Counted from the first letter of the stretch, positions 10,136 to 42,045 are shown. The stretch: DNA of 64,000 nucleotides from Candidatus Sulfomarinibacteraceae bacterium (GCA_963823345.1 CAWGLE010000004.1:513166-577165), one strand, 5' to 3'. The notes: generated by a model not told the origin, from the letters alone. Numbers and translations are program-made.

Positions 10136-10137
10136 AC

Positions 10138-10161
10138 CACAGAGACACAGAGACACAGAGG
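10138..10161. repeat. Tandem 8-mer array (CACAGAGA)3
   Basis: cacagaga cacagaga cacagagg, starting 3 nt after the methyltransferase stop (10133-10135). Confidence 0.75.
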
Positions 10162-10320
10162 TCGTTCACCGGCGCGGCAGAACTGCCGGCGATCAGGGAT
10201 CGCTGCCGGTGAGCCGTCCGTCCGTTCCGGATGCGAGCATCCGTCCCGGCCGGCCGCCCCACCGGCGACGCGCCGACGGCGCGTAGGTCCTGCCTTCCGA
10301 GAAAAGGGACGAGCCAAACC

Positions 10321-10427
10321 GCATGGAATCGTAGGGTGGGCTTCAGCCCACCATCAGAGTCGTTCACATACGAGGCGGACTCGAGGGACCCGAGGCAACT
10401 CTGAAGGTGGGCCGAGGCCCACCCTAC
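10321..10427. repeat. REPIN type 1, copy 2
   Basis: gcatggaatcGTAGGGTGGGCttcagCCCACC...GGTGGGCCgaGGCCCACCCTAC; same 107-bp layout as 1471-1577. Confidence 0.8.
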
Positions 10428-10525
10428 CCATACAAGTAAGTGGGAAATCTGGGTCAATCCGGGTGATCTGTGGACAACCTTTGCGCCTTTGCGTCTCTGC
10501 GTTAAAAACGATGACGCTTCTGCAA

Positions 10526-19722: not shown

Positions 19723-20057
19723 TGCACCCTCCTCCCGAACGGTCCCCGGACGCCCGACCGTTCGGGCGCCCACCACCGACAAGACATGGCCGCGGTGTCC
19801 CGACCGCGGGCCGAATACGCTGTACAAGGAATTCCTTGCCTGCAATATGAGACTTTGGTCACGAATTGGCAACCCGTGCTGAGAACAGGTTTCATCGAAC
19901 TGGTCGGAGAGCAGAATCCCATGCCTCCAACGTCGGCTCCGCTATGCTCGAAGTCCTCAGGATTTGGTTCCATTTCGGTGCGATTGGAGTCCGGCGGCGG
20001 TGGCCAGCCTTGACGATGGTCGGCCAGGGTTGTATTTTTGGAATCGGTAATTCCGAA

Positions 20058-21227
20058 ATGAGCGGCAAAATGGAATTTATACCTCGTTTTTTTCATCCGC
20101 CGGATCAGAGTTTCTTTCTTTTCGGGCCGCGGGGCACGGGCAAGTCGTGCTGGCTCGTGCACACCTATTCCAATGCACTGGTGGTGAATCTCCTCGAGCC
20201 GGATGTCTATCGCGAGATGAGCGCGCGACCCGAACGACTGTCACAACTGGTTCTCGCGGACTCCGATCGAAACCCGGTGGTCATCGACGAGGTCCAGCGG
20301 GTTCCGGAGCTGCTCAACGTGGTTCACGATCTCATCGAACGGCGTCCGGAGATTCATTTCGTCCTGACCGGGTCGAGCGCGCGCAAGCTTCGTCGCGGCG
20401 GCGTGGATCTGTTGGCCGGGCGCGCGCTCCATCGTTCTCTGCACCCGTTCATGGCGGCCGAACTCCCCGATTTCGACCTCCAGGAGGCTCTGGTCCGGGG
20501 ATTGCTGCCCATCGTTGTCGCGGCGCCGCAACCTACCGACGTCTTGAAGGCGTACGCCACCCTGTACTTGGAGGAGGAAGTCCGACTCGAGGGATGGGCC
20601 CGCAACGTCGGTGACTTCGCCCGCTTCCTCGAGGCAGTGAGTTTTTCCCACGCCTCGGTTCTCAATGTCAGCAATGTCGCTCGCGAGTGCCAGGTCGAAC
20701 GCAAGACGGTCGCGGGTTATCTGGAGGTTCTCGAAGACCTCCTTTTGTCGTTCAGGGTTCCCGTGTTTTCACGACGGGCTCGCCGGAAGACAGCAGCCCA
20801 CCCGAAGTTCTATTTTTTCGACGCCGGCGTCTACCGTTCGCTGCGTCCCCGGGGCCCACTCGATCGCCCCGAGGAGATCGACGGCTGCGCGTTCGAAGGG
20901 CTTGTGGCCCAACATCTCCGGGCATGGATCGACTATTCGGGCAACGAGTGTGACCTCTTCTACTGGCGGACCCAGGCTGGTGTCGAGGTGGATTTCGTGG
21001 TTTATGGCGAAGGGGGTTTTTGGGCGGTCGAGGTCAAGAACACAGCGACGGTCAGACCACACGACCTTCGGGGCCTCAAGAACTTTCGCGACGATTATCC
21101 CGAATGCGAACTGATCTTCGTTTACCGGGGGGCTCAACGCCTTCTGGTCGATGGCGTTCTCTGCGTGCCGGGTGAAGAGTTTTTGCGGGGTATTCAGCCG
21201 GGCAAAAATATCGAGACACTTGACTGA
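20058..21227 (+). CDS. AAA-type ATPase with DUF4143-like domain (second copy, divergent)
   Basis: ATG 20058 or 20070. ..FFLFGPRGTGKS.. Walker A, ..VVIDEVQRVPELL... Candidate promoter TTGACG(20010)-17 nt-TATTTT(20033). Confidence 0.75.
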   Translation: MSGKMEFIPRFFHPPDQSFFLFGPRGTGKSCWLVHTYSNALVVNLLEPDVYREMSARPERLSQLVLADSDRNPVVIDEVQRVPELLNVVHDLIERRPEIHFVLTGSSARKLRRGGVDLLAGRALHRSLHPFMAAELPDFDLQEALVRGLLPIVVAAPQPTDVLKAYATLYLEEEVRLEGWARNVGDFARFLEAVSFSHASVLNVSNVARECQVERKTVAGYLEVLEDLLLSFRVPVFSRRARRKTAAHPKFYFFDAGVYRSLRPRGPLDRPEEIDGCAFEGLVAQHLRAWIDYSGNECDLFYWRTQAGVEVDFVVYGEGGFWAVEVKNTATVRPHDLRGLKNFRDDYPECELIFVYRGAQRLLVDGVLCVPGEEFLRGIQPGKNIETLD

Positions 21228-23898
21228 AATTCCGGAGTGCCCGCCAAGGCGGCCCGCCGCTCATTCACCACTCCGGCACCTCGGCCCATCCCGGGAACGG
21301 ACCGACCTCGATCTTCCAGCCGGTAGAGGATTCCTCGTCCCGGACGACGCGGAGGTTTGTGAGGGTCTTGAGCTTGGCGATCAGCTCGTCGTGCGGCAGG
21401 GTGTGGAGCGGCGGCTTCGAGAGGTCGGGCATGGGCCAGACTCGAGAGGTATCGTCGATGCCCGACGACGACGAGCCAGGCGTTGTCGGGGGAGACGAAC
21501 TTGTAGCCGATCGCGCCCTCTGGCCGAGGAGGAGGTGAGGTGTTGTCCGTCCGATCCGGCCGACCTGGATCGTGCCGTCCGATTCGACCCGCGACCCAGA
21601 TCGTCGCCGTCGGGGCTGATCGAGGGATTGCCCGAAATAAGAAAATCAAGGTCTCGAGCGCCGTCGGTCCTCACGTCGAAGAGCTTTGTCGGCTCGGCAC
21701 CGGTTCATACCGCGAATCGGTGTCCCAGCAGGAGGGCCCTCGGCGGTCGGCGGTCATCGACATCGACGAGTGCCGCCGCTGGGGACCCGATGACTTCTTC
21801 GTACGTCCCGGCGTCGAGGTCCCATCGCAGCAGGCCGTTCGCACCGCTGTGTAAAGGCTGCTTTCGTCCACAAATGCGAGATGGACCGCCGCGTACCCCT
21901 CGTAGCCCTCCGGGTCCACGGGCTGTTCGAAGACCCGCACCTCGTCCGTGTCGAGGTCCCACACCCGAAGCGTCGCCTGGCCTTCCGATTGGGCGCTCGC
22001 CGCCGCCACCAGCCGCCCGCTCGGCGAGAAGCCGCCGGCGACCAGCGCTCGCTGGCAGGAAAACCGAAGAGATTCCGGGCCTCTCCACGGTCACCGAGAG
22101 CAGGAAGCTGCTGCGGCCGTACTCAGCGCCAGCACGTACCGAACGGTCGGGTCGACGGTCATTCATGTGTCCGACAGCTCCGATTCCGGTGGCAACATCA
22201 GGTCGACGATGTCGTCTGGGTGTTTCCGGGCACCGGCCAGAGCCGCACCCGGGTTGCCGGGTGATTCACCGAACAGTCGATGGCGACAAGGAAACGACCG
22301 TCACCGGTGAAGCCCTGCTCTACCAGCCCTTGATGACGATTGGGAGGGGGTCTCGGAGCGGCCACAACCCGTTCACTTTGTCGACGTCCGTCGCGCAATC
22401 CAGTCTCCGTGGGGTTGAAGCGCATGGCGAAGCTGGTGGTCTGGCGGAGCTGCAACGGTTGGCGTGGCGGATCGCCGCGAGGTCCCACAATGTCACGGGG
22501 TACCCGGATAACGAGTATTACGATGGCCCGACGCCCCGCGGGTCCGGGACGAGGCTATCGCTCGGACGCCCTCCGGCCGCCGCATTCGTTTACGGGGCAA
22601 CCAGGAGCCGACCGTCCAGGGACCACAGGATGATCTCGCCGCTGCTGTCGTCGCGAGAAGAATTCGCTCCGTCGCGCCCCAGATTTCGACGAACAACACC
22701 GTCTGACGAGTGGCGGCCGAGCAGCGTGTCGGACACGTCTTCGATGACCGGCAGAGGGCGGGAATATACGCCGTTCCCCTTGGAGTAGAGCCATGCATTC
22801 CCCCGCGGATCGAAGATGCTCGTGGACTGGTGCCGACGGCGCGAAAGTCGACCGTGCCGAGGTCTTCGGCCTCGCCGTCCGGCAGCTTCCACCGGACGAG
22901 CTTGAGCGGCCACGGCTCGCCGGCTGGGGGTGAGGATCGCGCGCCGACCTCAGCGAGGAGGTGCTGCTCGCCCACCTGCCACCACGCTCGGCCGCCGAGC
23001 TCGATCGTGGCGACGAGATCGCCCCGCGGCATCGACCACACCCGCACGCGGGTCTCGCTGTTGTGGCCGGTGACGAGAAAATCGTCACGGCTCCAACCAC
23101 ATTGGATCGGATTGTTGGCAGAAACCGCATGACCGCCGAGGACGATCGGACGGCCTCCGGCCTTCTCGTGGACCAGCACGTCCTGATTGACGATTCCCCG
23201 TCCCGCGAGCCACTGCCCGTCGGGGCTGAAGCAGGAGCCCGCGATCTGTCCCCGGGTGAAATGGCGCGGGTCGAGCACCCTGACCGGCGGTCCCGCCCAC
23301 AACGCCCGCACCGCAAACAGGCGCGCTTCACGCGAGTCTGCGAGCTCGAGGCTCGAGGTCGCGTAGGCGAGCGCCTCGGTGGGGTCCTTCTCGATCTGCA
23401 CCTGGGCCAGGGCGAGCAGCTTCGAGGCCTCGGCGCGGCGGGTCTCGAGGACGCTGCGGCGCCAGAAGGTGCCGACAAACGGCTGCCGATGACCAGGGCC
23501 AGCGCGATTGCTGCCGCTACCGCGATCCGGCGCCGCCGTCTCCGCCGCGTCGCGAGGGAGGTCATGGCGGCAGCGAAGGCCTCCTCGAGCTCGGTGAGGC
23601 CGCCCGGGTAGCGCTCCCGCCATACGGCAAACTCGCGGTAGGCGGAGCCGGTCCACAGCATGTCGTCGGTGCGGCCGTGCTCGTCCCAGGTCTTGCGCCG
23701 CCTGCCGCAGCTGGTCGCGCAGCTGGGCGGCGTCGGCGTCCTGGGTCTGCCAGCGCACGAGGCGCGGCCAGTTGGCGAGCAGCGACTCGTGGATGATTTC
23801 GACGCGGCGGGTGGGTTCCTGTTCGTCTTCGTGGATCTCGTACGAGGTCAGGAGCCGGGCGTCGATGAGTTCTCGCAGCACTTCTTCTGCGGCAGAGC

Positions 23899-23964
23899 GG
23901 GAGGGGATAAACCCCTCCCCTACGGCTTTCCTTGCGTTCGTAGGGGCGGGGTTTATCCCCGCCC
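23899..23964. repeat. REPIN type 2 embedded in paralogue A coding region
   Basis: GGGAGGGGATAAACCCCTCCCCTAC-ggctttccttgcgttc-GTAGGGGCGGGGTTTATCCCCGCCC. On the minus strand it is translated as ..AGINPAPTNARKAVGEGFIPS... Confidence 0.8.
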
Positions 23965-24993
23965 TGCGATGGTCCCCGTCAAAAATTGATAGCAACTCGT
24001 TCCATTCTCGGACCGCCCGGGTGCCTTCGGCGGTGACGAGGTTGCGGAAGAGCTCGCGGACGATGGGAATTCGTTCGGCACCGATGCGGTCGATGGTGGC
24101 TTCGGCGTGTTGGGCCAGCGCGCCGGCGACGCCGCCGATCTCCTGGTACGCTTCGCGGGTGAGGAGACCGCTCTCCTTGTCGCGCCGCTCCCACAGGCGC
24201 GCAGCCGCAAACGCCAGCAACGGCAGGGCGCCGCGCTCGCCCTCGACCTCGGCCAGCATCTCGTCCACCAACTCGTCGTCCTCGAAGCGGTAGCCGCACT
24301 GCAGCGGCGGGCTGGGACAGGGCGCGTCGGAGAGCGGCGCCGGTCGGTGGGTCGAGCAGCGTGAGGTCGGCGAAGACCGGCGCGAGGGCTTCGTGGTCGC
24401 GACACCGATCAGGAAGTCGTCCCGCATGCGACAGCAGCACGAAGCACGTCGGCCTCGAGCGCGAACGCGGCGAGCAGTGTCCGCGAACCTCTGCTGTATC
24501 GTCGGCGGAGTTCTGAGTGAACAGCTCCTCGAACTGATCGACGATCACCAGAGTGCTCGGTCGTCGCTTGCCGCCACCGCGCGACGACGTCGACCGCCAC
24601 GTCCGGTCGTCGCGGCCGCGAGCACGAGTCCATCGCCTCGGCGTCACCGGCCATCGCGGCGCCAACGCCCGTCCGCAGCGACGCTGACGGGTCGTTGCCG
24701 GGTGTGCAGATCGGACGGTGCCCCAGCCGGGCCGTGCGGTCGCAATCAGGCCTGCACGAAGGAACGAAGTCTTGCCTGCGCCCGGAGGCCCGACCAACCC
24801 GAGCATCCTCGGCGGCCCCTCGAGCTTGCGCCACATCTGCTCGACCTCGGCCTCGCGGCCGAAGAAGTACTCGGCATCAGCTTCGGTGAAGGATGCGAGA
24901 CCGGGGTAGGGGTGGAGGTCGTCGGCGCCCTCGACTCGGAGGGTCACGTCCTCGAGGGCGCGGGTGAGAGTGTGGGCGGAGTTGTATCGGTCT

Positions 24994-25797
24994 TCACGGT
25001 CCTTTCTTGACGGCCTTTTGGATCACCGCTGCCCACGGCGTGTCGGGGACTTTGGCAGGCTCGGATCGCACACCGTCCCACACGCTCTGGCGGGAGTCGA
25101 AGCTCTTGATGCCGTCGGGCTCGACCATCTCGGCGAGCACCACGCCCGCTGCGTAGACGTCGGCCCTGGCATCGAGCGTCTGCCCCGCGGCCTGCTCGGG
25201 CGACATGTAGGCGGGCGTGCCCGCGACCGTGCCACCGCCCTCGGTCTCCTGGCGGGCGAGGCCGAAGTCCATCACCACGACTCGTCCGGCGCGGGTGAGC
25301 ATGATGTTTTCAGGCTTGATGTCGCGGTGGATCAGGCCGGCCTTGTGGATGGCTTCGAGGCCCGCCAGGAACTGCGAGGCGATGTCCTGGGCTTCCTTGA
25401 GCTCGAGGGGGCCGCGCTCCTGCAGCACGCCGAGCAGCGTCGCCCCGTCGACGTACTCCATCGACACCAGCTCGCGGCCCTCGACCTCGATCAGGTCGAA
25501 GATCCGGCAGACGTTGGGCGACACCACCTCGCGCGCGGCACGCACCTCCTGGCGCAACAGCTCGAGGCGCCGCTCGGATTTGAAGAACTCGGGCCGCAGC
25601 GCCTTCAGCGCCACCTCGACCCGCAGCTTGAGGTCGAAGGCGTGCCACACCTCGCCCATCCCGCCGCGGCCCAGCATCTCGAGGATCTGGTAGCGCTCAC
25701 CCAGCACCTGGCCGGGCGCGAAGCCCTTCATCCCCTCCGGCAGGTCGAGGGTCTCGCCCTCGCCCTCGGTGCGGGTGGTGAGGTCGTGGTCAGTCAT
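24994..25797 (-). CDS. Stand-alone Hanks-type Ser/Thr kinase ORF (intact N-terminal remnant of paralogue A)
   Basis: 267 aa with GRGGMGEVW, VALK, HRDIKPEN, DFG and GTPAYMSPE. It terminates at TGA 24994-24996 after an extra base near 25001 relative to paralogue B. Confidence 0.6.
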   Translation of the reverse strand: MTDHDLTTRTEGEGETLDLPEGMKGFAPGQVLGERYQILEMLGRGGMGEVWHAFDLKLRVEVALKALRPEFFKSERRLELLRQEVRAAREVVSPNVCRIFDLIEVEGRELVSMEYVDGATLLGVLQERGPLELKEAQDIASQFLAGLEAIHKAGLIHRDIKPENIMLTRAGRVVVMDFGLARQETEGGGTVAGTPAYMSPEQAAGQTLDARADVYAAGVVLAEMVEPDGIKSFDSRQSVWDGVRSEPAKVPDTPWAAVIQKAVKKGP

Positions 25798-25831
25798 CGT
25801 ATACCCACACTCGCGACATGACTGGATCATG

Positions 25832-25879
25832 TGCAGGCGGGACGCCTGCACCACACACCCGGCAGCCGGGACGGCTGCC
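25832..25879. repeat. Two REP hairpins with 8-bp stem and GGA loop
   Basis: TGCAGGCG-gga-CGCCTGCA (25832-25850; also at 42080-42098) and GGCAGCCG-gga-CGGCTGCC (25861-25879). Confidence 0.75.
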
Positions 25880-25972
25880 CCACAACGGACTATCGGCCGT
25901 CTCGGTCGGGCACGTGCTCCACGGCCCAGGGCGCGGCCGTCGCGACAAAAACTCATCTGAGGTATCCTCGAC

Positions 25973-26412
25973 GTGGAGGCCCCGATCATGAACTCGAACG
26001 TTGGTCCGGCCGAGCGCATCACCGCAGTGCTGTCGGCTCGTCCGGAGATCCTCGAAGCGTACCTCTTCGGGTCCGGGCGCGAGGTGAGGGCCAGGCGCAC
26101 AGCGATATCGACATCGCTGTTTTCATCGATGAAGCGAAGGTCGAACCGGGCCCCTTCGGATACCGAGCAGAGCTGACATCGGCGCTGATGAGCGGCCTCG
26201 GCACCAACGCCGTCGATGTCGTGGTGCTCAACCGCGCGCCGCCGCTTCGTGTACCACCGGGTCCTGCGCGACGGCTGCGTCTGTGTTCACGCGACCTTCG
26301 TGCAACCACGGTTCGCGAGGGCAGGGCCCTCTCACGCCACTGCGATTTCGTGCCGCAGCTGGCGAAGATCGACGCCATACTAGGTGCTCGAGCGCCGTTC
26401 TCGGAGAGGTAG
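25973..26412 (+). pseudogene. mntA: MntA-type minimal nucleotidyltransferase (antitoxin), copy 1, frameshifted
   Basis: ..RITAVLSARPEILEAYLFGS.. (frame 2) then ..GEGQAHSDIDIAVFIDEAKVEPGPFGYRAELTSALMSGLGTNAVDVVVLN.. (frame 1). There is a 1-nt deletion near 26071-26080 relative to copy 2, plus a +1/-1 pair around 26245-26290. Confidence 0.65.
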
Positions 26413-26414
26413 TC

Positions 26415-26845
26415 GTGGGCCCGGGTGAAATCGACGTCCTGATCATACGTCGCCACCTGGCCGCTCTCCGCGAGTCGCTCCAGGTCCTCGCCGCTCGCAA
26501 TGAGGTCTCTCTCGAGGAACTCGACGCCGACACCGAGCTGCTGTGGGTCGTGGAACGCGGTCTCCAGCTCTGCGCACAAAACGCGCTCGACATCGCGACC
26601 CACATCGCGGCAAGCAGGGGCGGGACGTCCCGGACTACGCCAGCGCCATCGACGAGCTCGGGCGCCTCGACGTGCTCGACCATGATTTCGTACGCGAGTT
26701 TCGCAACGTTGCGGGCTTCCGGAACGTGCTGGTGCACGGCTATCTCGATGTGGACCTGGATGTCCTGTACACGCTCCTGCACGACCGTCTCGGAGACTTC
26801 GAGTCCTTTGCGGCCCGAATCGAGACCTACCTCGAAAACCTCTGA
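26415..26845 (+). pseudogene. hepT: HepT-type HEPN (DUF86) toxin, copy 1, frameshifted
   Basis: GTG 26415 lies 2 nt after the mntA stop. The N-terminal half is in frame 0 (..LWVVERGLQLCAQNALDIATHIAA..). The C-terminal half is in frame 2 (..DVPDYASAIDELGRLDVLDHDFVREFRNVAGFRNVLVHGYLDVD..; Rx4H motif). The shift is near 26605-26625. Confidence 0.65.
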
Positions 26846-29432
26846 GGCCCGCCTGTGCCCGCCAGGGTCGCCTGATCTCGGATGAGATCGCCCGAAGAAC
26901 AATCGTCTCCTCACGGCATCACCATGTCGGCACCGTTTCCCACCCGGGAAGGGATCGTGGGTCAGCTTCCATCCGGTGGAGGATTCCTCGTCGCGGACGA
27001 CGCGGAGGTTGGTGAGGGTCTTGAGTTTGGCAATGAGCTCCTCACGCGGCAGGGTGTGGAGCGGGGCCTTCGAGAGGTCGGGCATGGGCCAGAGGCGGAC
27101 TGTTCCATCATTACCCCCGGACGCGATCCATCGACCGAGGGGGTCGATTGCGAATGTCCACACCGTGCTCTCGTGACCGAGCAGAAGATGCGGTTCTTCT
27201 CCGGTCAGGGGACCAACGCGGATCTCGCCATCCCGGTCCCCGGTAACGGCAAGAGTCCCAGCTGGATCGATGCCAACAGCTGATATATTGTTCCCGAATC
27301 GTTCGAGGCTGGTTTTCGTCCCTGAGTCGAGATCGAGAAAGACGGCTTTTCCAGACAGAGGGTCCGACTTTTCATCTTCGATGACGAGCACCCGGCGCCC
27401 ATCGGCGCTCGCAGCAAACAACCCGACGCTCCCTTCGGGCTTATACAAAAGGTCACGTCGCCCACCCCGAATATCCCATTGCCACAGCCCCGACACACTT
27501 GTCGAAAGCAGACGGTCTCCTGTCGTGAATTGAAGGCAATCGGGTCGGGTTGGTTCTCCAACTTCCAGGACGGCCACTTCCTCACCTGACGGAACGTCCC
27601 AAACCCTGATCTTTTGTTCTGCAGGATCGAATCTTCCCCCTGCAGCGGCGGCCAAGCGGCCGTCGGCACTGAAGGCCACCCCCCATGTCTGACCCGTGAA
27701 ACCTTCGAGGTTGATGGAGAACCCGCCATCGGACTGCAGTAGCCGTGTGCCCGCCCCATTGGTGCCGGCCAGGATCTGCTCACCGTCTGGTGATACTGCA
27801 ATACCCGTCGTCCATGTGTTCAGTTCCAACAATATGCGCCCCGGCGGAGGAGGGTCCCCTTCGAGTGGCCACAGCCTGACGGTGCCGTCCATAGAACTCG
27901 AAGCGAGCCAACTGCCGTCGGGTGCGAATGCGAGACCGGGCACTTCTAGATCTTGTTGCCGTATGACGATGGGAGACTGCCTCGACAGCGGCCATATTGC
28001 CAACCCGGCCAGGTCAGCGGTCGCCAACCAGTCGCCTCGGGGGCTGAATGCACACTGTCGAGTTGCATGTTGTCGCCGCGGAGGAGAACCAGCGGTTCGG
28101 CGTCGATCGGCAAATCCGTTGACCACACGCGATACTTCAAATCGGGTCCCCACCGGGCCACCCGTCTGCCGGAGTCGTCCCATCTCCGCCACCCCCAACC
28201 GGTTCCACCAAGATTGAAGCGGCGAAGGAATCGGGGGGAATCTCCTGATACGGCCCAGACCGATGAAACAAAATTGCCGTCTTCTCGAGCAAGCGCTTCG
28301 AGGCGGGACCCGTCAATCGAAAACTCGAGGGAACGAATTCCTAGTGGCCCCTTGAATACAAATGGTGGAAGGACACCGCGTGGATCCCACAGTCGGATCT
28401 CTCCCCTCGACGTCCGCTGTGGCGACAAAACGCCCAAGGGGATCCACGGCAACGCCCACGGCAGTGCGACCGACCCTGCCCAAACGCCGCGCCGGAGAGA
28501 GGGCGTGGTCGCCCACCTCGGCGATGAAAACATCGCCATCAGCAACAACGCCGATCCAGGCCCCATTCTGAGGGTCGAGATCGAAGTGAGTCAGCCATTT
28601 CCCGTCTTGATCCCGTTTGACCACGAACTCCAGCGTGCCGAGGCGCTCAACTGAACCGTCGTGACCCAGGGTATCGACAACGCCGAGGTTGTTTTCCTCG
28701 ACCAGTAGAACGTGGCGATCTCTGTTCGTATCCTCCGCGATGCCTCTCGTGTACGCGGGTTCCTTGTAACGGATGTCTGCCAGCCTCGTCTCCTCTATTA
28801 CTGACCATAGGCCGTGCTCCCAGGTCCCGTCGGCACCGGACCCATAGGTTACGAAGTGCCCGGTGTTGCTGATACGCGATACGGCTCCGGCCGACGCGGA
28901 AGCCTCTGATTCAAGGTATCTGCTGGACCCGTCGGCAGAAATGACGCTCAATCGGGGACTCCCTTCGGGGACACCTCTCCTTTGTTGAACCAGCCACCTG
29001 CCGTCGGGGCTGAATGGGCAGGCCCAGACCTGGTCATCGGAGGCAACAAGCGCTGTAGGTCCTTTCCACAGCGCTTCGAGGGCAAGCAGGCGCGCACTTG
29101 GACCGTCGGCAAGTTCCAGGCTTGCGATCGCGTGGGCGACCGCTGCTGACGGGTACGACTCCAGTTCCAGCTGTCCCAGCGACACGAGGTTTGCCGCTTC
29201 GGCGCGGCGCTCCTGGAGAGCGCTCCGTTGCCACAAGATAGTCGTTGCCGCAGTTACCACTGCGGCGATCACCAGGGCCGCCGCCACTGCGGCGCGGCGT
29301 CTACTTCGTCGGCGGCCTGAAAGGGCGACCATGGCACCGGCGAACGCTTCCTCGAGTTCGGTCAATCCTCCCGGATATCGATCCCGCCACACGGCGAACT
29401 CTCGGTACGCCGAACCGGTCCAAAGCAGATCG

Positions 29433-31559
29433 TCAGACCGATCGTGCTCGTTCCACGTCTTTGCAGCCTGCCGGAGCTGATCGCGGAGCTGGGCCGCGTC
29501 GGCGTCCTGGGTCTGCCAGCGTACGAGGCGCGGCCAGTTGGCGAGCAGCGATTCGTGGATGATTTCGACCTGGCGCACCGGCTCGTGCTCGTCCTCGTGG
29601 ATTTCGTAGGAGGTCAGGAGCCGCGCATCGATCAATTCCGCGCAAGACCTCTTCGGCAGCGCTGCGGGAGGGGATTAACCCCTCCCCTACGGCTTTCCTT
29701 GCGTTCGTAGGGGCGGGGTTTATCCCCGCCCTGCGATGGTCCCCATCGAAGATCGACAGGATCTCGTCCCATTCGCGGACGGCTCGGGTGCCTTCTGTGG
29801 TGACGAGGTTTCGGAAGAGTTCTCTTACAACGGGAATGCGTTCGACGCCGATGCGGGCAATCGTCGCCTCTGCGTGCTGGGCAAGCGCTCCGCCGACCCC
29901 GCCGATGTCCTGGTAAGCCTGGCGGGTGAGGAGTCCGGTTTCGCGATTTCGCATCTCCCAGAGCCGCGCCGCAGCGAAGGCCAGCAACGGGAGTGCTCCT
30001 CGTTCACCTTCCACCTCGACGAGCATCTCGTCCACCAGATCGTCGTCCTCAAAGCGGTAGCCGCACTGGAGGGCGGGTTGTGTCAGGGCGCGCCGGAGGT
30101 TGGCACCGGTCGGCGGATTGAGCATCGTCAGCTCGTTGAAGACCGGTTGAAACTGCTCGTGCGAGCTGCACGATGCGGCGAAATCATCCCTCATGGACAG
30201 CAGCACGTGGGTGTCGGCTTCGAGGGGGAGTCGGGCGAGCAGGGTCGCAAAGTGCTTTTGGCGATCGCCGGAATGGAGGGTGAATAACTCCTCGAATTGG
30301 TCGAGGATTAGAAGGGTCGCGCGATGATTTCCTCGTGCGTTCGCCATCGTCTCGATGATGACGTCCGGGTTTTCGGGATCCGTCAGAAGACGCTCGAGGT
30401 TGTCGTGCTCGTGAGAAAGCACGGAAGTCAGCGCGCCGCGCAGCGAGGCAACAGCTGCGTTTCCGGGAGTGCATCGCAGAATTATCCAGCCGGTTGGAGC
30501 ATGCGCCATCAACCCCGCTCTGATGAACGAGGTTTTTCCTGCGCCAGATGGCCCCATGATTGCGATCATCCGCGCCGGTCCCTCGAGCTTGCGCCACATC
30601 TGCTCGACCTCGGCCTCGCGGCCGAAGAAGTACTCGGCGTCTGATTCGGTGAAGGAGGCGAGACCGGGGTAGGGGTGGAGGTCGTCGGCGCCTTCGACGC
30701 GGAGGGTCACGTCTTCGAGAGCGCGCGTCAGCGTGTGGGCGGAGTTGTAGCGGCCTTCGCGGTCTTTTTTTACGGCCTTCTGGATTACCTGAGCCCACGG
30801 CGTCTCGGGGACCTTTGCGGGTTCGGAGCGCACGCCTTCCCACACGCTCTGGCGGGAGTCGAAGCTCTTGATGCCCTCGGGGCTCACCATCTCGGCCAGC
30901 ACCACGCCTGCCGCGTAGACGTCGGCCCGTGCGTCGAGCGTCTGGCCTGCCGCCTGCTCGGGCGACATGTAGGCCGGGGTGCCGGCGACCGTGCCGCCGC
31001 CCTCGGTCTCCTGCCGGGCGAGGCCGAAGTCCATCACGACCACCCGCCCGGCCCGGGTCAGCATGATGTTCTCGGGTTTGATGTCGCGGTGGATCAGCCC
31101 GGCCTTGTGGATCGCCTCCAGTCCGGCGAGAAACTGCGAGGCGATGTCCTGGGCTTCCTTGAGCTCGAGCGGTCCACGCTCTTGAAGAACGCCGAGAAGG
31201 GTCGCCCCGTCGACGTACTCCATGGACACCAACTCGCGGCCCTCGACCTCGATCAGATCGAAAATGCGGCAGACGTTGGGCGACACCACCTCGCGGGCCG
31301 CTCGCACTTCCTGGCGCAGCAGTTCGAGTCGCCGCTCGGATTTGAAGAACTCCGGTCGCAGCGCCTTCAGCGCCACCTCGACCCGGAGCTTGAGATCGAA
31401 GGCGTGCCACACCTCACCCATCCCACCGCGCCCGAGCATCTCGAGAATCTGGTACCGCTCACCCAGCACCTGGCCGGAGGTGAACCCCTGCATCCCCTCC
31501 GGCATGTCGAGGGTCTCGCCCTCACCCTCGGTGCGGGTGGGGAGGTTTGGGTCAGTCAT
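29433..31559 (-). CDS. Kinase + STAND NTPase ORF of paralogue B (708 aa, intact up to just after the REPIN insert)
   Basis: Full kinase motifs, then ..LHPYPGLASFTESDAEYFFGREAEVEQMWRKLEGPARMIAIMGPSGAGKTSFIRAGL.., ..LLILDQFEELF.. (Walker B-like). Confidence 0.65.
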   Translation of the reverse strand: MTDPNLPTRTEGEGETLDMPEGMQGFTSGQVLGERYQILEMLGRGGMGEVWHAFDLKLRVEVALKALRPEFFKSERRLELLRQEVRAAREVVSPNVCRIFDLIEVEGRELVSMEYVDGATLLGVLQERGPLELKEAQDIASQFLAGLEAIHKAGLIHRDIKPENIMLTRAGRVVVMDFGLARQETEGGGTVAGTPAYMSPEQAAGQTLDARADVYAAGVVLAEMVSPEGIKSFDSRQSVWEGVRSEPAKVPETPWAQVIQKAVKKDREGRYNSAHTLTRALEDVTLRVEGADDLHPYPGLASFTESDAEYFFGREAEVEQMWRKLEGPARMIAIMGPSGAGKTSFIRAGLMAHAPTGWIILRCTPGNAAVASLRGALTSVLSHEHDNLERLLTDPENPDVIIETMANARGNHRATLLILDQFEELFTLHSGDRQKHFATLLARLPLEADTHVLLSMRDDFAASCSSHEQFQPVFNELTMLNPPTGANLRRALTQPALQCGYRFEDDDLVDEMLVEVEGERGALPLLAFAAARLWEMRNRETGLLTRQAYQDIGGVGGALAQHAEATIARIGVERIPVVRELFRNLVTTEGTRAVREWDEILSIFDGDHRRAGINPAPTNARKAVGEGLIPSRSAAEEVLRGIDRCAAPDLLRNPRGRARAGAPGRNHPRIAARQLAAPRTLADPGRRRGPAPRSAPAGCKDVERARSV
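29666..29731. repeat. REPIN type 2 embedded in paralogue B coding region
   Basis: GGGAGGGGATTAACCCCTCCCCTAC-ggctttccttgcgttc-GTAGGGGCGGGGTTTATCCCCGCCC. Confidence 0.8.
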
Positions 31560-34700: not shown

Positions 34701-34919
34701 CTTCTCCCACAGACGTGCGGCAGCGAACGCCAGTAGCGGCAACGCGCCGCGTTCGCCTTCGACCTCGGCCAGCATCTCCTCGATCAGCTCATCGTCTTCG
34801 AAGCGGTATCCGCACTTTGTCGCGGGTTGCACGCTGCGCGGCGCAGATCGCCCCCGGTCGGCGGGTCGAGCACCGTGAGTTCTGGAAGATCGGATCGCAG
34901 CGAATCGTGGGCATTGCAT
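31758..34919 (-). CDS. Intact 1053-aa ORF of paralogue C: distal NTPase/helical region - TM - WD40 - conserved tail
   Basis: Homology begins at ..KCGYRFEDDELIEEMLAEVEGERGALPLLAFAAARLWEKRD.. and runs uninterrupted to ..THDPFPGWETVPTW*. The first ~35 codons are out-of-frame junk, so the true start and expression are unclear. Confidence 0.45.
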   Translation of the reverse strand: MQCPRFAAIRSSRTHGARPADRGRSAPRSVQPATKCGYRFEDDELIEEMLAEVEGERGALPLLAFAAARLWEKRDRETGLLTRQAYQEIGGVGGALAQHAEATIDHIGSERIPIVRELFRNLVTAEGTRAVREWGELLSIFSDSHSKSPEEVLRELIDARLLTSYEIHEDEHEPTRRVEIIHESLLANWPRLVRWQTQDQEGAQLRDELRQAARSWDEHGRHDDRLWTGTAYREFELWRERYPGGLTSTEEAYATAMTSFATRRKRRRRLVMAAALVVLAGVASILGGMWAKSERETRRAEANELLALGQQELDSYPSAAVAYAITSLELADSPSARYLAQAALWGGPTALVINDESSWQAEFTPDGRALVQSGDGTGNLRLIKADGTSELLQHQHESRRINIRVGLETGVFSSFGFFDKSVLPLLALWSVADGRMLSEASYDGPARLLGQAVNATQQRMVYLVLEGKIGSIDILGFGGARKRLGTPDLGFKTSRDWIRRTDLERRTGRWLGAVVDEDVLVIDIGEHSLSEPRRLGRHVEPVRKVLFDPLGRFFATIAEDGRIRLWDNAGDSPPILLSAPPGAILDITADGSLLEASVFEEGEVTSWIWLLDTNPPRFLRPFPVGDDGIGWWGLNRVGWQIARSGSDLKIRLWPMAAPADAEPVFLLRGDVDVLWGLSFHPNGNWLASADKAGAALWPLARPYPAVIRRHEKEVMDLLFGPEGRWLVSSSMDDTVRFWPLEGDVLPPGRILLKDPGKQMYDLARTPDGEQLLAGTAWSGARLFSLSGEEFQTVPDIGPVSFWGASISPDGRLCAGVLDVKTPEIRILVWDRTSGEEVAVLYPEGRRVFCLQFTNDGHLLSSSEFGLRKWDLVTGESELLYEGNIFLFDASSDGKQAIVIEGYVLEASAPKRAVFLDFETGETRTLETHGTRVYAVALDQKNKIVATGDTDGVVRVGPITGEEPHLLLGHENGVTALAFDPLGRWVASGGKDKTIRLWPMPDLSKPPLHTLPREDLIAKLKTLTNLRVVRDEESSTGWKLTHDPFPGWETVPTW

Positions 34920-36304
34920 GCGGCTACGAAGTCATCGCGCATTGAAAGCAGCACGTGGATGTCGCTCTCGAGAACGGATCGCCGCAGCAGTTCTGCGAAC
35001 CTCCGCTGTTCTTCGATACCGTTCTGAGTGAACAGCTCTTCGAACTGATCGACGACTACGAGAGCATGTGTGTCCGTTCGCGCCCAGCTGGCCGAGTACC
35101 TGAACGGCGACGTCGGCATCGCCGAAACGAGGAAGCAGCTCGACCGCGTCCGGATCTCCAGCCGTTTCGCCGGCCACCACCCCGGCGAGCGAGGAGGTGG
35201 CTGCGTTTCCGGGAGTCGATCGGATGATCCCCCAGTCCGGCGGAGCGTGGGCCACGCAGCCCGGCCGCGAGAAACGAGGATTTTCCTGCCCCCGAGGGCC
35301 CGATAATTGCGAGCATTCGCGGCGGCCCCTCGAGCTTGCGCCACATCTGCTCGACCTCGGCCTCGCGGCCGAAGAAGTACTCGGCGTCTGCCTCCGTGAA
35401 TGATGCGAGCCCGGGATAAGGGTGGAGGTCGTCGGCGCCTTCGACGCGGAGGGTCACGTCTTCGAGGGCGCGCGTCGAGGGTGTGGGCGGAGTTGAAGCG
35501 ACCCTCGCGGTCTTCCTGACGGCCTGTTGGATGACCTGCGCCCACGGGGTGTCCGGGATCTTTGCGGCTCGGAGCGCACGCCTTCCCAGACGCTCTGCCG
35601 GGAGTCGAAGCTCTTGATTCCGTCGGGGCTCACCATCTTCGGCCAGCACCACGCCGCTGCGTAGACGTCTGCCCGCGCGTCGAGCGTCTGTCCCGCCCCT
35701 GTTCGGCGACATGTAGGCCGGAGTGCCGGACACCGGCCTCCGCCCTCGGTTTCCTGACGGGCGAGGCCGAAGTCGATCACGACGACCCGACCGGCCCGGG
35801 TGAGCATGATGTTTTCCGGCTTGATGTCGCGGTGGATCAGGCCGGCCTTGTGGATGGCTTCGAGCCCGGCGAGGAACTGCGAAGCGATGTCCTGGGCTTC
35901 TTTGAGTTCGAGCGGCGCGCGCTCCTGGAGCACTCAAGCAACGTCGCGCCGTCGACATACTCCATCGACACCAGCTCACGGCCTTCGACCTCGATCAGAT
36001 CGAAGATGCCGGCAGACGTTGGGAGAGACCACCTCACGAGCGGCGCGGACTTCCTGCCGCAACAGTTCCAGCCGCCTCTCGGACTTGAAGAACTCGGGCC
36101 GCAATGCCTTCAGCGCCACCTCGACCCGCAGCTTCAGGTCGAAGGCGTGCCACACCTCGCCCATCCCGCCACGTCCGAGCATCTCGAGGATCTGATAGCG
36201 GTCACCCAGCACCTGTCCGCGGTGCGAAGCCCTTCATCCCCTCCGGCATGTCGAGGGTCTCGCCCTCACGCTCGGTGCGGGTGGTGGAGATCGTGGTCAG
36301 TCAT
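31758..36304 (-). pseudogene. Paralogue C of kinase - STAND NTPase - TM - WD40 protein (N-terminal kinase/NTPase part decayed)
   Basis: ATG 36304 (MTDHDL..). An extra C gives a stop after 12 codons. Kinase and NTPase pieces lie in ORFs 35976-36212, 35454-35933, 35056-35979 and 34784-35545, with several shifts and a few replacements (E->D, G->A, M->I). It lacks the REPIN insert (..LLSIFSDSHSKSPEEVL..). Confidence 0.65.
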
Positions 36305-36482
36305 TGGTTATCCGAGTCGGAAGTGACCGGTTTGGTGGACGGGTCACTCCGAGGCCCGCCACCGCCCACCCGGCGGGCCGGGACGGCTGCCCCACAACGG
36401 ACACATTGGCCACTTTGTCGGGCACGCGCTCCGCGGCCCCGGCGCTGTCGTCGCGACAGGAACTATCTGAGGTATCCTCGAC

Positions 36483-36923
36483 ATGGAGGCCCCGTTCATG
36501 GATCCGAAAGATCTGCTGGCTGGACGCATCACCGCGGTGCTGTCGGCTCGTCCGGAGATTCTCGAGGCGTATCTCTTCGGATCCCACGCTCGGGGTGAGG
36601 GCCAGGCGCACAGCGATATCGACATCGCTGTGTTCATCGATGAAGCACGAGGTCGGACCGGGCCCCTTCGGATACCGAGCGGAACTGACCTCCGCGCTGA
36701 TGAGCGGTCTCGGCACCAACGCCGTCGATGTCGTGGTGCTCAATACCGCGCCGCCTCTCCTGTACCACCGGGTTCTGCGCGACGGCTCCCGTCTGTACTC
36801 TCGCGACCTTCGCGCGACGACGGTTCGCGAGGGCCGGGCCCTCTCGCGCCACTGCGATTCGTGCCGCAGCTCGCGAAGATCGACGCCATACTAGGTGCTC
36901 GAGCGCCGTTCTCGGAGAGGTAG
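36483..36923 (+). pseudogene. mntA: MntA-type nucleotidyltransferase, copy 2, middle third out of frame
   Basis: ..YLFGSHARGEGQAHSDIDIAVFIDEA (frame 0), then a +1 shift near 36645-36655. ..PGPFGYRAELTSALMSGLGTNAVDVVVLNTAPPLLYHRVLRDGSRLYSRDL..ALSRHCD is in frame 1, then a -1 shift near 36858 returns to ..FVPQLAKIDAILGARAPFSER*. Confidence 0.65.
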
Positions 36924-36925
36924 CC

Positions 36926-37357
36926 GTGGGCCCGGGTGAGATCGACGCCCTGATCATTCGGCGGCACCTGGCCGCTCTCCGCGAGTCGCTCCAGGTACTC
37001 GCCGCTCGCAGCGACGTCTCTCTCGAGGAACTCAACGCCGACACCGAACTGCTGTGGGTTGTTGAGCGCGGTCTCCAACTCTGCGCACAAAACGCGCTCG
37101 ACATCGCGACGCACATTGCAGCCGGCCGGGGGCGCGATGTCCGGACTACGCCAGCGCCATCGACGAGCTCGGACGCCTCGGCGTGCTCGACCGATGAGTT
37201 CGTACACGAGTTTCGCAACGTCGCCGGTTTCCGGAACGTGCTGGTGCACGGCTATCTCGATGTGGACCTGGATGTCCTGTACACGCTCCTGCACGACCGT
37301 CTCGGAGACTTCGAGTCCTTTGCGGCCCGAATCGAGACCCACCTCGAAAACCTCTGA
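36926..37357 (+). CDS. hepT: HepT-type HEPN (DUF86) toxin, copy 2; open frame but with a 19-codon recoded patch
   Basis: GTG 36926. ..EFRNVAGFRNVLVHGYLDVDLDVLYTLL.. (Rx4H). Between ~37140 and ~37197 a -1/+1 pair turns the ancestral VPDYASAIDELGRLGVLD into VRTTPAPSTSSDASACSTD. Confidence 0.6.
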   Translation: MGPGEIDALIIRRHLAALRESLQVLAARSDVSLEELNADTELLWVVERGLQLCAQNALDIATHIAAGRGRDVRTTPAPSTSSDASACSTDEFVHEFRNVAGFRNVLVHGYLDVDLDVLYTLLHDRLGDFESFAARIETHLENL

Positions 37358-37430
37358 GCCTCGGTTGTGCCCGCCAGGGTCGCCTGATCTCGGATGAGAT
37401 CGCCCGAAGCGTAAGCGTCTCCTCATGACA

Positions 37431-40400
37431 TCACCACGTCGGCACCGTTTCCCACCCCGGGAAGGGATCATGGGTGAGCTTCCACCCAGTGGTGGACTCT
37501 TCGTCGCGGACGACGCGGAGGTTGGTGAGGGTTTTGAGCTTGGCGATGAGATCCTCACGCGGCAGGGTGTGGAGCGGCGGCTTCGAGAGGTCGGGCATAG
37601 GCCAGAGGCGGATCTCGGTTCCCGACGACGAGGCGATCCAACGATCCAGAGGGTCGACAGATACGGCGTAGATCTCGTCCGGATTTCCAAGCAGAAGATG
37701 AGGTTCCTCGCCAGTTATGGGTCCGACGCGGATCACGCCGTTCGAGTCACCCGTTACAGCGACCGTGCCCGATGGATCTATCGCGACCGCTGTCACGCGG
37801 TCCCCATGGGACTTGAGCGTATTTGTCAATCCGGTCTCGAGGTCGAGCGACACGGCTTTACCTAAAAGGGCCAAGGACGCCCTCTCGTTCCCAACTTCGG
37901 ACAGAAGCGCGTGGGTACTGTCCACGCCAACCGCAAACTTCTCCACAGGTTTTTCGAACAGGGCTTCCGTGACACCGGTTTCAAAATCCCAGCCGAACAA
38001 ACCCGATGAGTGCGAATACAGAACGAGCCCCCCCTCCGTGAATTGGAGGAAAGGAGTGGCATTGGTTTTGGCCAATTCGAGCGCTGCTATCTCTTCGGAC
38101 GAGGAAAGGTCCCACACTCGTACAACGGTTTCCTCATAATTCCCTTTCAAACCGGTGGCTGCAGCGAATCGGCCGTCGGGGCTGAACGCCGCTCCCCATA
38201 CAATTTTGGCGACGCCTGGAAGATCAACAGGTTTCTCATTGCTGAGTGAGAGCAGTTTTGTGCCGGTGGCGTGGGTCCCGAGAAGGAGGTGTTCCCCGTC
38301 AGGGGAAGCAGCGAGACCGTACGGATAAGCCCCCGCCTCGAACACAGTCCGGGCCGCCGGCACGTTATCGCCCTCCAAATCCCACACGCGAACGGCGCCG
38401 GTTGAGTCGACACCGCTCGTCGCGAGCCACCTGCCCTCGGGTCCGAATACCAAATTCATGGCTCGCTCCTCGTACCGATTGATCACCGCTGGGTAGGGTC
38501 AGGTCACTGGCCAGAGAGTCAGGCCGTTTGTAAACGAGGTGGCCAACCACCCGCCATTCGGGTGAACTCTCACGCGTCTCGGGGTGCTGGCGTCACCTCG
38601 TTGCAAGATTGTGGGTTCGGCGTCAGCCGGCGCCCGCAACCACCACAGCCGGGTTTTCGGGTCTGGATTGAGGATGCTGACGATCTGACCTTCAACTGGA
38701 TTGAGCGTCCAGCCCGCGGTTCCGCTGCTCTTCCCAAGATCGATGTGGCGAAGCAAGGTCGGTTCGCGGTCCCGAAGAGACCAGATCCACGATTCGACCA
38801 TGTCGTTTTTCCGTGTGATAACCTCGAACAACGATCCGTCGCCACTGATACTGAGTCGAATGTCGCCGCGTGGCCCCCCTTTGATCTCCCGTGGCGGCGA
38901 CTCCCCATCCAGGTCTCGCAGACGAATCCGCCCGTCTTCGGAGAGTGAAACGACGAATCGACCCTGGGGGTCGCATTGGAGGCGCACGACTGGAGTATCG
39001 AGAAAATCGAGATGTCGCGGCTCTGAGAGTTCGTGGTCTCCGACCTCGATCACGTAGACATTTTGACCGGACCCAACGGCAAACCATTTTCCTTTCGGGG
39101 CGCTTTGGCAAAGAACTGTCGAACGCGAGTCAAATGGGAGAGCGCCGAGGCGTTCGGAGCTGCCGTCGAATCCTAAGGCATCGATGAAGAAACGGTCGTC
39201 CTCTATCGACATCAGCAATACGCGGGCTCGCCCCAGGTCGAAATAGATTCTCCGAGTATTTTCTGGAATCCCGGATCGGCCGGTGGAAAGCAGTTTTTTT
39301 TCAGGAGCCGACCAGAGCGCCCATAGTTCGGCGTTGCCCCAGGGACTTGTCGCGAAAACTCCTGATTCCGTATCCATCGTCAGACCAACCCAGTCATCGT
39401 GCACGTCCTCTAACAGTTCATCGGTTCCTTCAGCACCGATAACATGCAGTTGGTAAGGGGCCGCATCCGTTGCCTGCACGAGCCACTGACCGTCAGGGGT
39501 GAACTCGATTTCCCACGACGGAATTTCGTTGACAACAAACGCTGTCGGGCCTTTCCAGAGCGCCTTGAGTGCGAGGAGCCGAGCCTCTGAACTGTCCGCC
39601 AGTTCGAGACTGGCCGTCGCGTATGCCACTGCGGCTGACGGATACGACTCGAGTTCTACCTGCGCCTGGGAAAGAAGGGTGGCGGCCTCGGCGCGGAGAG
39701 TTTCGCGGACGCTTCGCTGCCAGAATGTGCCGACGACCGCGAGGCCGGCGAGGAGGACAGCGAACCCTGCGCTCACCGCTATTCGACGCCTGCGCCGACG
39801 TCGCCCGGCGAGGGAGGTCATGGCGTTCCCGAAATCTCTTTCGATCTCGGTCAGGCCACCGGGATAGCTTTCGCGCCACACGGCGAACTCTCGGTAAGCC
39901 GAACCGGTCCAAAGCAGATCGTCAGATCGGTCGTGCTCGCTCCACGTCTTCGCTGCCTGCCGGAGTTGATCGCGGAGCTGGGCCGCATCGGCGTCCTGGG
40001 TCTGCCAGCGCACCAGCCGCGGCCAGTTGGCGAGCAGAGATTCGTGGATGATTTCTACTCTACGGGTTGGTTCGTGTTCGTCTTCGTGGATTTCGTATGA
40101 GGTCAGGAGTCGGGCGTCGATGAGTTCGCGAAGGACCTCTTCTGCGGCAGTGCGGGAGGGGATGAACCCCTCCCCTGCGGCTTTCCCTGTCTTCGTAGGG
40201 GCGGGGTTTATCCCCGCCCTGGGGTAGCTCCCACCGAAAATCGAAAGGAGTTCATTCCATTCACGGACGGCGCGGGTGCCTTCGGCGGTGATGAGGTTTC
40301 GGAAGAGTTCTCTGACGATGGGGATCCTCTCGACACCGGTGCGATCGATTGTTGCCTCGGCGTGCTGCGCCAATGCCCCGCCGACGCCGCCGATGTCGTG

Positions 40401-42045
40401 GTACGCCTTTCGGGTGAGAAGCCCGTTCTCCTTGTCGCGTCGTTCCCAAAGCCTCGCCGCCGCAAAGGCAAGCAGCGGGAGTGCTCCGCGTTCGCCTTCG
40501 ACCTCGGCGAGCATCTCGTCGACCAGATCGTCGTCCTCGAAGCGGTAACCGCACTGCAGAGCAGGTTGGGTCAGGGCGCGCCGAAGCGGTGCACCCTCCG
40601 GTGGGCCGAGCATCGTCATGTCGGCGAGCGCCGGACGCAGTGGCTTGTTCTGGTGGCAGCGGAAGAGATAGTCATCGCGCATGCTCAGCAGCACGACGAT
40701 GTCGGCCTCGAGAACGAGCGCGTTCAAGAGTTCTGCGATCGTGCTCTGGATCTCTGGCGGGTTGAGGGTGAACAGCTCCTCGAACTGATCGATGATCAAT
40801 AGTGCGTGGTCATGCTTGCGACGCCAACGAGCGACAAGGTCCACCGCGACGTCCAGCTCGTGAAAGCGTAGCAAGAGTTTTACGCCATCAGAATCTCCCG
40901 CCGTCTCGGTTGCGAAGGCTCCGGCAAGGGCGTTGACGGGTGCGTTGCCGGGGGTGCATCGAACAATTCCCCAGCCTGGCGGAGCGTGCGGCGCCAGCCC
41001 CGCCCCCAAGAAGGACGTTTTTCCGGCTCCCGAAGGGCCCGCGATTGCGAGCATTCGCGGCGGCCCTTCGAGCTTGCGCCACATCTGCTCGACCTCGGCC
41101 TCGCGGCCGAAGAAGTACTCGGCGTCTGATTCGGTGAAGGAGGCGAGGCCGGGGTAGGGGTGGAGGTCGTCGGCGCCTTCGACTCTGAGGGTGACGTCTT
41201 CGAGCGCTCTGGTCAGGGTGTGGGCGGAGTTGTAGCGGCCCTCGCGGTCTCTTTTTACCGCCTGTTTAATGACTGGCGCCCATGGCGTGTCGGGGACCTT
41301 TGCGGGCTCCGAGCGCACGCCTTCCCAGACGCTCTGCCGGGAGTCAAAACTCTTGATGCCTTCGGGACTCACCATCTCGGCCAACACCACGCCCGCTGCG
41401 TAAACGTCGGCCCGCGCATCGAGGGTCTGGCCTGCAGCCTGCTCCGGCGACATGTAGGCGGGTGTGCCGGCGACAGTCCCGCCGCCCTCGGTCTCCTGGC
41501 GGGCGAGGCCGAAGTCCATCACCACCACCCGCCCGGCACGGGTGAGCATGATGTTTTCGGGTTTGATGTCGCGGTGGATGAGGCCAGCCTTGTGGATCGC
41601 TTCGAGGCCGGCGAGGAACTGCGAGGCGATGTCCTGCGCTTCCTTGAGCTCGAGCGGACCGCGCTCCTGGAGCACGCCGAGAAGCGTCGCGCCGTCGACG
41701 TACTCCATCGACACCAGCTCGCGGCCCTCGACTTCGATCAGATCGAAGATCCGGCAGACGTTGGGCGAGACCACCTCACGAGCGGCGCGGACTTCCTGCC
41801 GCAACAGTTCCAACCGCCTCTCGGACTTGAAGAACTCGGGCCGCAATGCCTTCAGCGCCACCTCGACCCGCAGCTTCGAGGTCGAAGGCGTGCCACACCT
41901 CGCCCATCCCGCCGCGGCCGAGCATCTCCAGCACCTGATAGCGCTCACCGAGCACCTGACCGGGGGCGAAGCCCTTCATCCCCTCCGGCATGTCGAGGGT
42001 TTTGCCCTCGTCCTCGGTGCCTGTGGGGAGGTCGCGGTCAGTCAT
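37431..42045 (-). pseudogene. Paralogue D of kinase - STAND NTPase - TM - WD40 protein (least damaged: one +1 frameshift, one in-frame TGA)
   Basis: ATG 42045 (MTDRDLPTGTEDEGKTLDMPEG..). An extra C at 41877 splits the kinase between the Gly loop and VALK. A 1149-aa ORF (38499-41948) follows, then TGA 38499-38501 where B and C have Arg. The same frame continues for 356 codons to ..GWETVPTW* (37431). Confidence 0.6.
40154..40219. repeat. REPIN type 2 embedded in paralogue D coding region
   Basis: GGGAGGGGATGAACCCCTCCCCTGC-ggctttccctgtcttc-GTAGGGGCGGGGTTTATCCCCGCCC, translated ..AGINPAPTKTGKAAGEGFIPS.. within the intact 1149-aa ORF. Confidence 0.8.

Follow-up and report, generated by a model that had tools for sequence, protein, structure and literature searches.

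Two HepT/MntA modules in a STAND kinase array of a Candidatus Sulfomarinibacteraceae bacterium: frameshifts that probably stem from assembly error

HepT/MntA is the most abundant predicted family of toxin–antitoxin (TA) systems, and two of its members offer solved structures with which a new pair can be compared. One is the pair of Shewanella oneidensis (SO_3166/SO_3165; PDB 5YEP, 6M6U-W and 7BXO; PMC7641770), an operon of two genes, mntA first and hepT second, which encodes a PF01909-type minimal nucleotidyltransferase (NTase) with a GSX10DXD motif and a PF01934 HEPN protein with an RX4HXY motif. These two motifs define the Class-I pairs, and MntA polyadenylylates the tyrosine of HepT (PMC7641770). 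The other is the HEPN/MNT pair of Aphanizomenon flos-aquae (PDB 7AE2, 7AE6, 7AE8 and 7AE9), the best structural-sequence match to the HepT considered here (E value 3.5e-9, residues 6-140); its MNT is matched at 4.6e-5. Residues R103, H108 and Y110 of the HepT considered here align with the R, H and Y in the ‘RNRLVHEY’ of the A. flos-aquae protein. The depositors of these structures reportedly found an oligoAMPylation mechanism for this pair. Both pairs are distant relatives by sequence and come from phyla other than that of the window; by phmmer, the S. oneidensis HepT and MntA are matched at 8.9e-8 and 2.3e-5.

The modules studied here lie in a window of 64,000 nucleotides (the whole stretch of DNA that was analysed, with a G+C content of ~64%) from a Candidatus Sulfomarinibacteraceae bacterium (GCA_963823345.1 CAWGLE010000004.1:513166-577165), a metagenome-assembled genome (MAG) of the Thermoanaerobaculia in the Acidobacteriota. 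They share the two-gene organization and the domain pair of the S. oneidensis operon. Unlike the S. oneidensis and A. flos-aquae pairs, they sit in an array of kinase-STAND genes with their frames broken as assembled, and they are known here from sequence alone. Much closer relatives exist: proteins 96-98.6% identical are already in public databases, and the modules are an ordinary, already known kind of operon of small biological weight. It is the lesions that deserve attention. Kilobase-long tracts of ±1 indels in long-read MAGs can mimic arrays of pseudogenes and “compensated frameshifts”; if the lesions were real, they would amount to an unusual parallel, indel-only silencing of defence-like genes. 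Three checks for such artefacts can be made without reads: the dN/dS of the repaired frames, the presence of a near-identical short-read allele, and the spatial spread of the indels. The features of the modules are as follows.

25988..26412, plus strand: mntA-1, minimal nucleotidyltransferase antitoxin, 141 codons after repair
26415..26845, plus strand: hepT-1, predicted HEPN RNase toxin, 143 codons after repair
36498..36923, plus strand: mntA-2, open as an ORF, with ~69 codons out of frame
36926..37357, plus strand: hepT-2, open as an ORF, with 18 codons recoded and RX4HXY (R103, H108, Y110) in frame
25955..25970, plus strand: 16-mer ATCTGAGGTATCCTCG upstream of mntA-1, repeated at 36465-36480 upstream of mntA-2
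26855..26897: convergent intergenic spacer with the palindrome GATCTC-GGAT-GAGATC, second copy at 37367-37409

A preliminary description of this DNA had assigned both modules to HepT/MntA, and the profile searches bear this out. The repaired MntA (141 aa) covers positions 3-91 of the 93 in PF18765 (5.5e-19) and also matches PF01909 (2.5e-8), while the repaired HepT (143 aa) covers positions 3-120 of the 120 in PF01934 (E 2.9e-24). Among solved structures, the repaired HepT matched 7AE9/7AE8 (3.5e-9) and 5YEP_B, and the repaired MntA matched 5YEP_A and 7AE2_B. The motifs that had been named are recognizable as well: GSX10DXD is G28-S29-x10-D40-x-D42 of MntA, and RX4HXY is R103-NVLV-H108-G-Y110 of HepT in both copies. 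As assembled, the PF18765 match of mntA-2 is restricted to profile positions 3-43, and PF01934 is recovered at 1.7e-17 for hepT-2 and at 1.1e-14 for the C-terminal piece of hepT-1. Since PF01934, RX4HXY, a minimal NTase with GSX10DXD and the gene order were all found, we assign both modules on sequence grounds to the Class-I HepT/MntA (type VII) pairs after frame repair. By analogy with the characterized homologues, an intact HepT would be an RX4H HEPN RNase that cleaves mRNA, and the GSX10DXD centre of MntA would add AMP units to the RX4HXY tyrosine (Y110) and so block the RNase. With the repaired HepT as query, more than 2000 homologues were retrieved; every one of the best 120 has a length of 143-145 aa, and among them are named Thermoanaerobaculales entries and identities of up to 96%. 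In PADLOC, HepT had no match and MntA matched only weakly, to the candidate families PDC-S09 and PDC-M05A.

By pairwise alignment, module 1 (25988-26845) and module 2 (36498-37357) have ~93% column identity, flanks included. Both are present where they had been described, but the mntA starts first proposed, GTG 25973 and ATG 36483, are wrong; alignment to the intact relatives L001, L002 and L071 sets them at ATG 25988 and ATG 36498. In each module, mntA is directly upstream of hepT and co-oriented with it, with a gap of 2 nt from TAG to GTG, and the same order of mntA then hepT is seen in L001, L002 and L071. The 16-mer ATCTGAGGTATCCTCG has an inverted repeat (GAGG-TAT-CCTC) inside it, and a GGAGG Shine-Dalgarno sequence comes after it. 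Although the surrounding intergenic sequence varies, the 16-mer itself does not differ among the two modules, L001, L002 and L071; it is a candidate promoter or operator element. At the other end, the modules are nearly identical over the final ~110 nt of hepT and the spacer that follows, just as had been noted. The spacer is kept only in the closest relatives (L001-L003 and, in part, L006 and L044) and is absent where HepT is ~80% identical. We considered the hepT 3' end with the spacer as a conserved functional element and rejected it, because the conservation ends at the closest relatives; this limit points instead to recent common ancestry or gene conversion. Scans with Rfam and for tRNAs gave no matches.

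The eight indels listed in the preliminary description all exist in the window. Polarized against the intact outgroups L001, L002 and L071, each is private to one copy and absent from all three. As assembled, neither module has uninterrupted reading frames; each carries four frameshifting indels. In mntA-1, a -1 at 26072/3 (CCC>CC) parts GS from DXD, and a +1 at ~26247-26249 is followed by a -1 at 26276/7; this pair recodes ~9-10 codons rather than the 13 first counted. In hepT-1, a -1 at ~26614-26620 shifts the C-terminal half, including RX4HXY, into another frame. Module 2 carries a +1 at ~36649 and a -1 at 36857/8 (TTT>TT) in mntA-2, with the ~69 out-of-frame codons between them, and a -1 at 37139/40 and a +1 (G) at 37193 in hepT-2, where the 18 recoded codons lie just upstream of RX4H. 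Thus mntA-1 and hepT-1 are not compensated, while mntA-2 and hepT-2 remain open. Short homopolymers, such as the CCC, TTT and GG runs at some of the sites, are found at only about half of the indels, and for this reason a pure homopolymer-error model was rejected. Alignment of either module to any intact allele gives exactly 4 gap openings, whether at 33 or at 122 mismatches, while the intact alleles aligned among themselves show no gaps at up to 14% divergence.

The closest relatives give a good account of what an undamaged module looks like. The DUF86/NTase pairs of Thermoanaerobaculales and ‘Ca. Sulfomarinibacteraceae’ MAGs and metagenome contigs (such as P0001/L001, P0004/L002 and P0005/L071) have HepT proteins 94-98.6% identical to the repaired proteins of the window, with the same lengths of 141 aa and 143 aa, the same upstream 16-mer and the same downstream spacer, and these copies are intact. 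L071, an independent JGI contig, carries the allele lineage of module 1 in an intact state; it differs by 35 mismatches, of which 26 are synonymous and 9 non-synonymous, and has none of the four indels of module 1. Its hepT is identical to hepT-1 over ~400 of 432 nt; the two differ only by the deletion and, within one 30-nt patch, at third positions. In a protein-guided scan of ~43 close-clade loci, the module was intact everywhere except in L102, a short contig. A DNA pattern across both hepT-2 indel sites had 0 matches in metagenome contigs, though L071-like sequence should match it.

The indels are not confined to the modules. Self-comparison of the window reveals four minus-strand paralogues of ~4.6 kb each, all of them Pkinase-nSTAND1-WD40 STAND NTPases; module 1 lies between A and B, and module 2 between C and D. 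Together with two indel-dense tracts, they are listed below.

21265..25797, minus strand: STAND paralogue A (Pkinase-nSTAND1-WD40), divergent from mntA-1
26919..31559, minus strand: STAND paralogue B, convergent with hepT-1, one frameshift (29639) in the first 850 codons
31758..36304, minus strand: STAND paralogue C, divergent from mntA-2
37431..42045, minus strand: STAND paralogue D, convergent with hepT-2, frameshifted once (41877), with TGA in frame at 38499-38501
23483..26620: indel-dense tract 1, ~15 private ±1/±2 indels (paralogue A, nSTAND1 region: 6-11; module 1: 4)
34832..37193: indel-dense tract 2, 18 private indels (paralogue C, N-terminal 1.45 kb: 14; module 2: 4)

The tracts are 2.4-3.1 kb long, hold 5-8 indels per kb, and reach well past the modules into the adjoining genes A and C. 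In tract 1, the 6-11 frameshifts of paralogue A lie between 23483 and 25009, and a clean gap follows from 25010 to 26071. In paralogue C, the 14 frameshifts lie between 34832 and 36287, all in the first 32% of the gene and 10 of them in the kinase domain, while the remaining 3.1 kb (31758-34919) is one unbroken ORF. Of the indels in the array, 31/35 fall inside the A/C duplicated segment (P ~8e-8), which is the longest internal repeat pair. The spectrum comprises 23 insertions and 13 deletions, nearly all of them ±1. Paralogues B and D carry one frameshift each, and the two adjoining VapBC pairs and the long neighbouring genes are clean. Because of noise, lesions could not be counted from GC3 frame plots, which were used only as evidence of long single-frame runs beyond the array. 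The TGA of paralogue D lies between nSTAND1 and WD40, in a linker of low conservation, and the same frame runs 351 codons further; no alignable paralogue sequence was found by which this codon could be polarized.

A decaying pseudogene is expected to show relaxed selection, with dN/dS approaching 1, and this was seen neither in the modules nor in the kinase domains. In the repaired frames, the dN/dS of the modules is 0.13-0.19 for all pairs, and the synonymous-site patterns follow the unshifted frame. Private substitutions fall mostly on third codon positions (by codon position, 6/10/41 for module 1 and 3/2/9 for module 2). The kinase domains of all four paralogues have a dN/dS of 0.03-0.08 at a dS of 0.4-0.65, and that of paralogue C stays at 0.05-0.08 despite its 10 frameshifts; it has 22 private substitutions, 15 of them synonymous, where B and D have 17-19. 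Codons 261-500 of the STAND paralogues evolve much faster, with a dN/dS of 0.25-0.33. No in-frame stop was found in 850 repaired codons of A or C, and the lesions neither spread over the whole of C nor show the longer, deletion-biased indels of pseudogenes. Bacterial pseudogenes are biased toward deletions, including longer ones, and neutral decay brings many substitutions for every indel. By this measure, the two tracts lack most of the substitutions that should accompany their indels.

The preliminary description had left two causes side by side, decay and assembly error. The latter is favoured here, and decay is disfavoured by repaired frames that show no relaxed constraint: we put the probability that the module indels are local consensus errors of a long-read MAG at about three in four. 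The eight indels of the modules belong to two tracts of random ±1 indels that also cover the neighbours A and C. These tracts would most likely reflect a poor consensus in a Nanopore-type long-read metagenome assembly, for example from read support that was locally low or strain-mixed over the longest internal repeat. The four mntA and hepT genes would then probably be intact in the organism itself, and the ‘compensated’ pairs would be coincidences. What marks a consensus error is found in the window: private ±1 indels without accompanying substitutions, and a stray frameshift in a housekeeping gene. The latter is in tamA (Omp85 family, minus strand), where an extra G (GG>GGG) at ~51984, relative to both outgroups, splits the gene after the signal peptide and the first ~63 codons into ORFs at 51257-52174 and 49390-51984. 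The MFD-LR catalogue, the source of the closest relatives, was built from Nanopore reads only, by Flye --meta followed by a single Medaka round; where coverage was lower, residual Nanopore errors were reported for it.

A similar pattern recurs in a relative from a Nanopore MAG. L044 (MFD03804.bin.2.5 contig_58223, 7300-10470) has five private insertions in its module, and the STAND gene adjoining it changes frame ~5 times; L078, the short-read allele nearest to that of L044, is intact at 24 mismatches and a dN/dS of 0.16. The module of L042 (MFD09779.bin.1.340) is multiply frameshifted too. The assembly-error reading has its own difficulties, however. Paralogues B and D are similar in sequence to A and C and, like the VapBC pairs and the long neighbours, are clean, which leaves the concentration in tracts unaccounted for. 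About half of the indels are off homopolymers, several Nanopore MAG relatives (L002, L005, L006, L014 and L070) have clean modules, and two short-read assemblies (L065 and L102) have a frameshifted hepT. A split of broken and intact modules by sequencing technology alone was rejected on account of these intact Nanopore relatives. Cross-mapping between paralogues was likewise rejected as the full cause: the indels are not at the sites where A and C differ, and the kinase domain of A is clean while that of C is not.

The most serious competitor is real but very recent pseudogenization, in which A with module 1 and C with module 2 were inactivated before substitutions could record the relaxed selection. 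The indels are, after all, in the given sequence; TA and defence genes often decay, as the broken hepT of the short-read L065 and L102 illustrates; D has its in-frame TGA; and for the modules by themselves, the 4 indels that accompany 35 substitutions since L071 are no absurd proportion. Once the tracts are considered as a whole, decay becomes costly. It needs 15 and 18 independent indels in the two units with few excess non-synonymous changes and no nonsense codons, and a ±1 spectrum biased toward insertions, the opposite of the deletion bias of pseudogenes. The indels would also have to end abruptly inside C rather than cover the dead gene, and the same pattern would have to arise in the Nanopore MAG L044 while its short-read twin L078 is intact. 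We consider such recent decay unlikely. The low dN/dS, the intact L071 allele, the placement of the tracts, the insertion bias, the tamA frameshift and the recurrence in L044/L078 together make any evolutionary origin of the lesions very unlikely. Gene conversion from an old pseudogene donor was also tried as a source of the lesions and rejected, as no imported substitutions of a neutral pattern were found.

Confinement to the longest internal repeat pair and an indel-only signature without extra substitutions would equally suit a real, localized burst of indel mutagenesis, for example if DNA was copied in an error-prone way while the A/C repeats recombined or while double-strand breaks between them were repaired. 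We know of no bacterial process, however, that produces ~1% ±1 indels over kilobases without substitutions; the indels of each copy are private and differently placed, and a technical cause accounts for these observations too, with tamA and L044 pointing to it independently. This makes a burst highly improbable. Still harder to credit is the suggestion that the shifted frames are functional, either kept open by selection after a first hit, as the preliminary description had proposed, or read by programmed frameshifting. It is true that mntA-2 and hepT-2 are still open ORFs. ‘Compensation’ is expected by chance, because two random ±1 indels restore the frame with a probability of 0.5, and at 64% G+C few stops occur out of frame. 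Moreover, the recoded stretches replace conserved core segments and helices, mntA-1 and hepT-1 are uncompensated, none of ~150 homologous loci shares a shift site, and the synonymous sites track the unshifted frame. Two wider readings strike us as long shots: that the indels are real and a localized, indel-only process at the A/C repeat silenced two STAND+TA units at once in one genome and, separately, that the lineage-specific pairing of HepT/MntA with STAND genes reflects functional coupling and not co-residence in an island.

The modules are, as had been stated, more alike than the kinases, with a module dS of 0.23-0.34 against a kinase dS of 0.40-0.65. It had also been proposed that they travelled with the paralogues by segmental duplication. 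They do lie inside a duplicated unit, and the A-mod1-B(3') and C-mod2-D(3') units align over 3.3 kb. A simple recent duplication is not supported, because each module is closer to an outside allele than to the other module (35 mismatches between module 1 and L071 and 46 between module 2 and L001, compared with ~75 between the two modules) and because the kinase paralogues are old, each of them under strong purifying selection. Module 2 has a dS of only ~0.14 to its counterpart in L001 (9573-10432), and the L002 module is likewise close, while housekeeping genes compared between the genomes of the window and L001 have a dS of 0.35-0.60; this difference suggests cassette exchange or gene conversion among populations.

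The surroundings are shared with the closest relatives. L001 and L002 are Thermoanaerobaculia MAG contigs, L002 being a ‘Ca. Sulfomarinibacteraceae’ MFD MAG, and both have the same neighbourhood as the window: a CarboxypepD_reg outer-membrane protein, STAND, the module, an FHA regulator, isochorismatase, uvrB, a Na/Ca exchanger and tamAB. With four STAND genes and two modules, against a single one of each in L002, the window is an expanded version of the L001/L002 neighbourhood. Throughout the closest clade (HepT at least ~78% identical), HepT/MntA is always flanked by STAND genes, either divergent upstream or convergent downstream, while relatives with a HepT identity of ~75% or below have unrelated contexts and no STAND adjacency. 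As the adjacency is limited to the closest clade, the module acts like a mobile cassette within an island that varies.

The two outgroup contigs have irregularities of their own, probably assembly lesions. In L001 (10506-16374), uvrB is in two pieces (535 + 153 aa), and there is a frameshift in the FHA regulator as well. In L002 (12571-15297), uvrB is called as a 908-aa protein, while the window and L001 have a separate upstream gene of 221-228 aa with a 4-nt overlap with uvrB.

There are several other features of the window that may be of interest. Two intact type II TA pairs of the VapBC type, Phd/YefM + PIN and MazE/AbrB + PIN, lie at 43208-43863 and 44015-44646; both have a 4-nt start/stop overlap, and they occupy a ~1.8-kb stretch that is absent between the FHA regulator and the isochorismatase gene of L002. 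Flanking uvrB are direct and inverted repeats of ~48 nt and ~90% identity (45845-45891, 45962-46010 and 48025-48073), which could be REP- or MITE-like elements. A 172-bp direct repeat with 78% identity is found at 1415-1581 and 10260-10431. Finally, an intact gene for an AAA_14 + DUF4143 ATPase (453 aa) is located at 19866-21227, with the CarboxypepD_reg outer-membrane protein on one side and the 3' end of paralogue A on the other.
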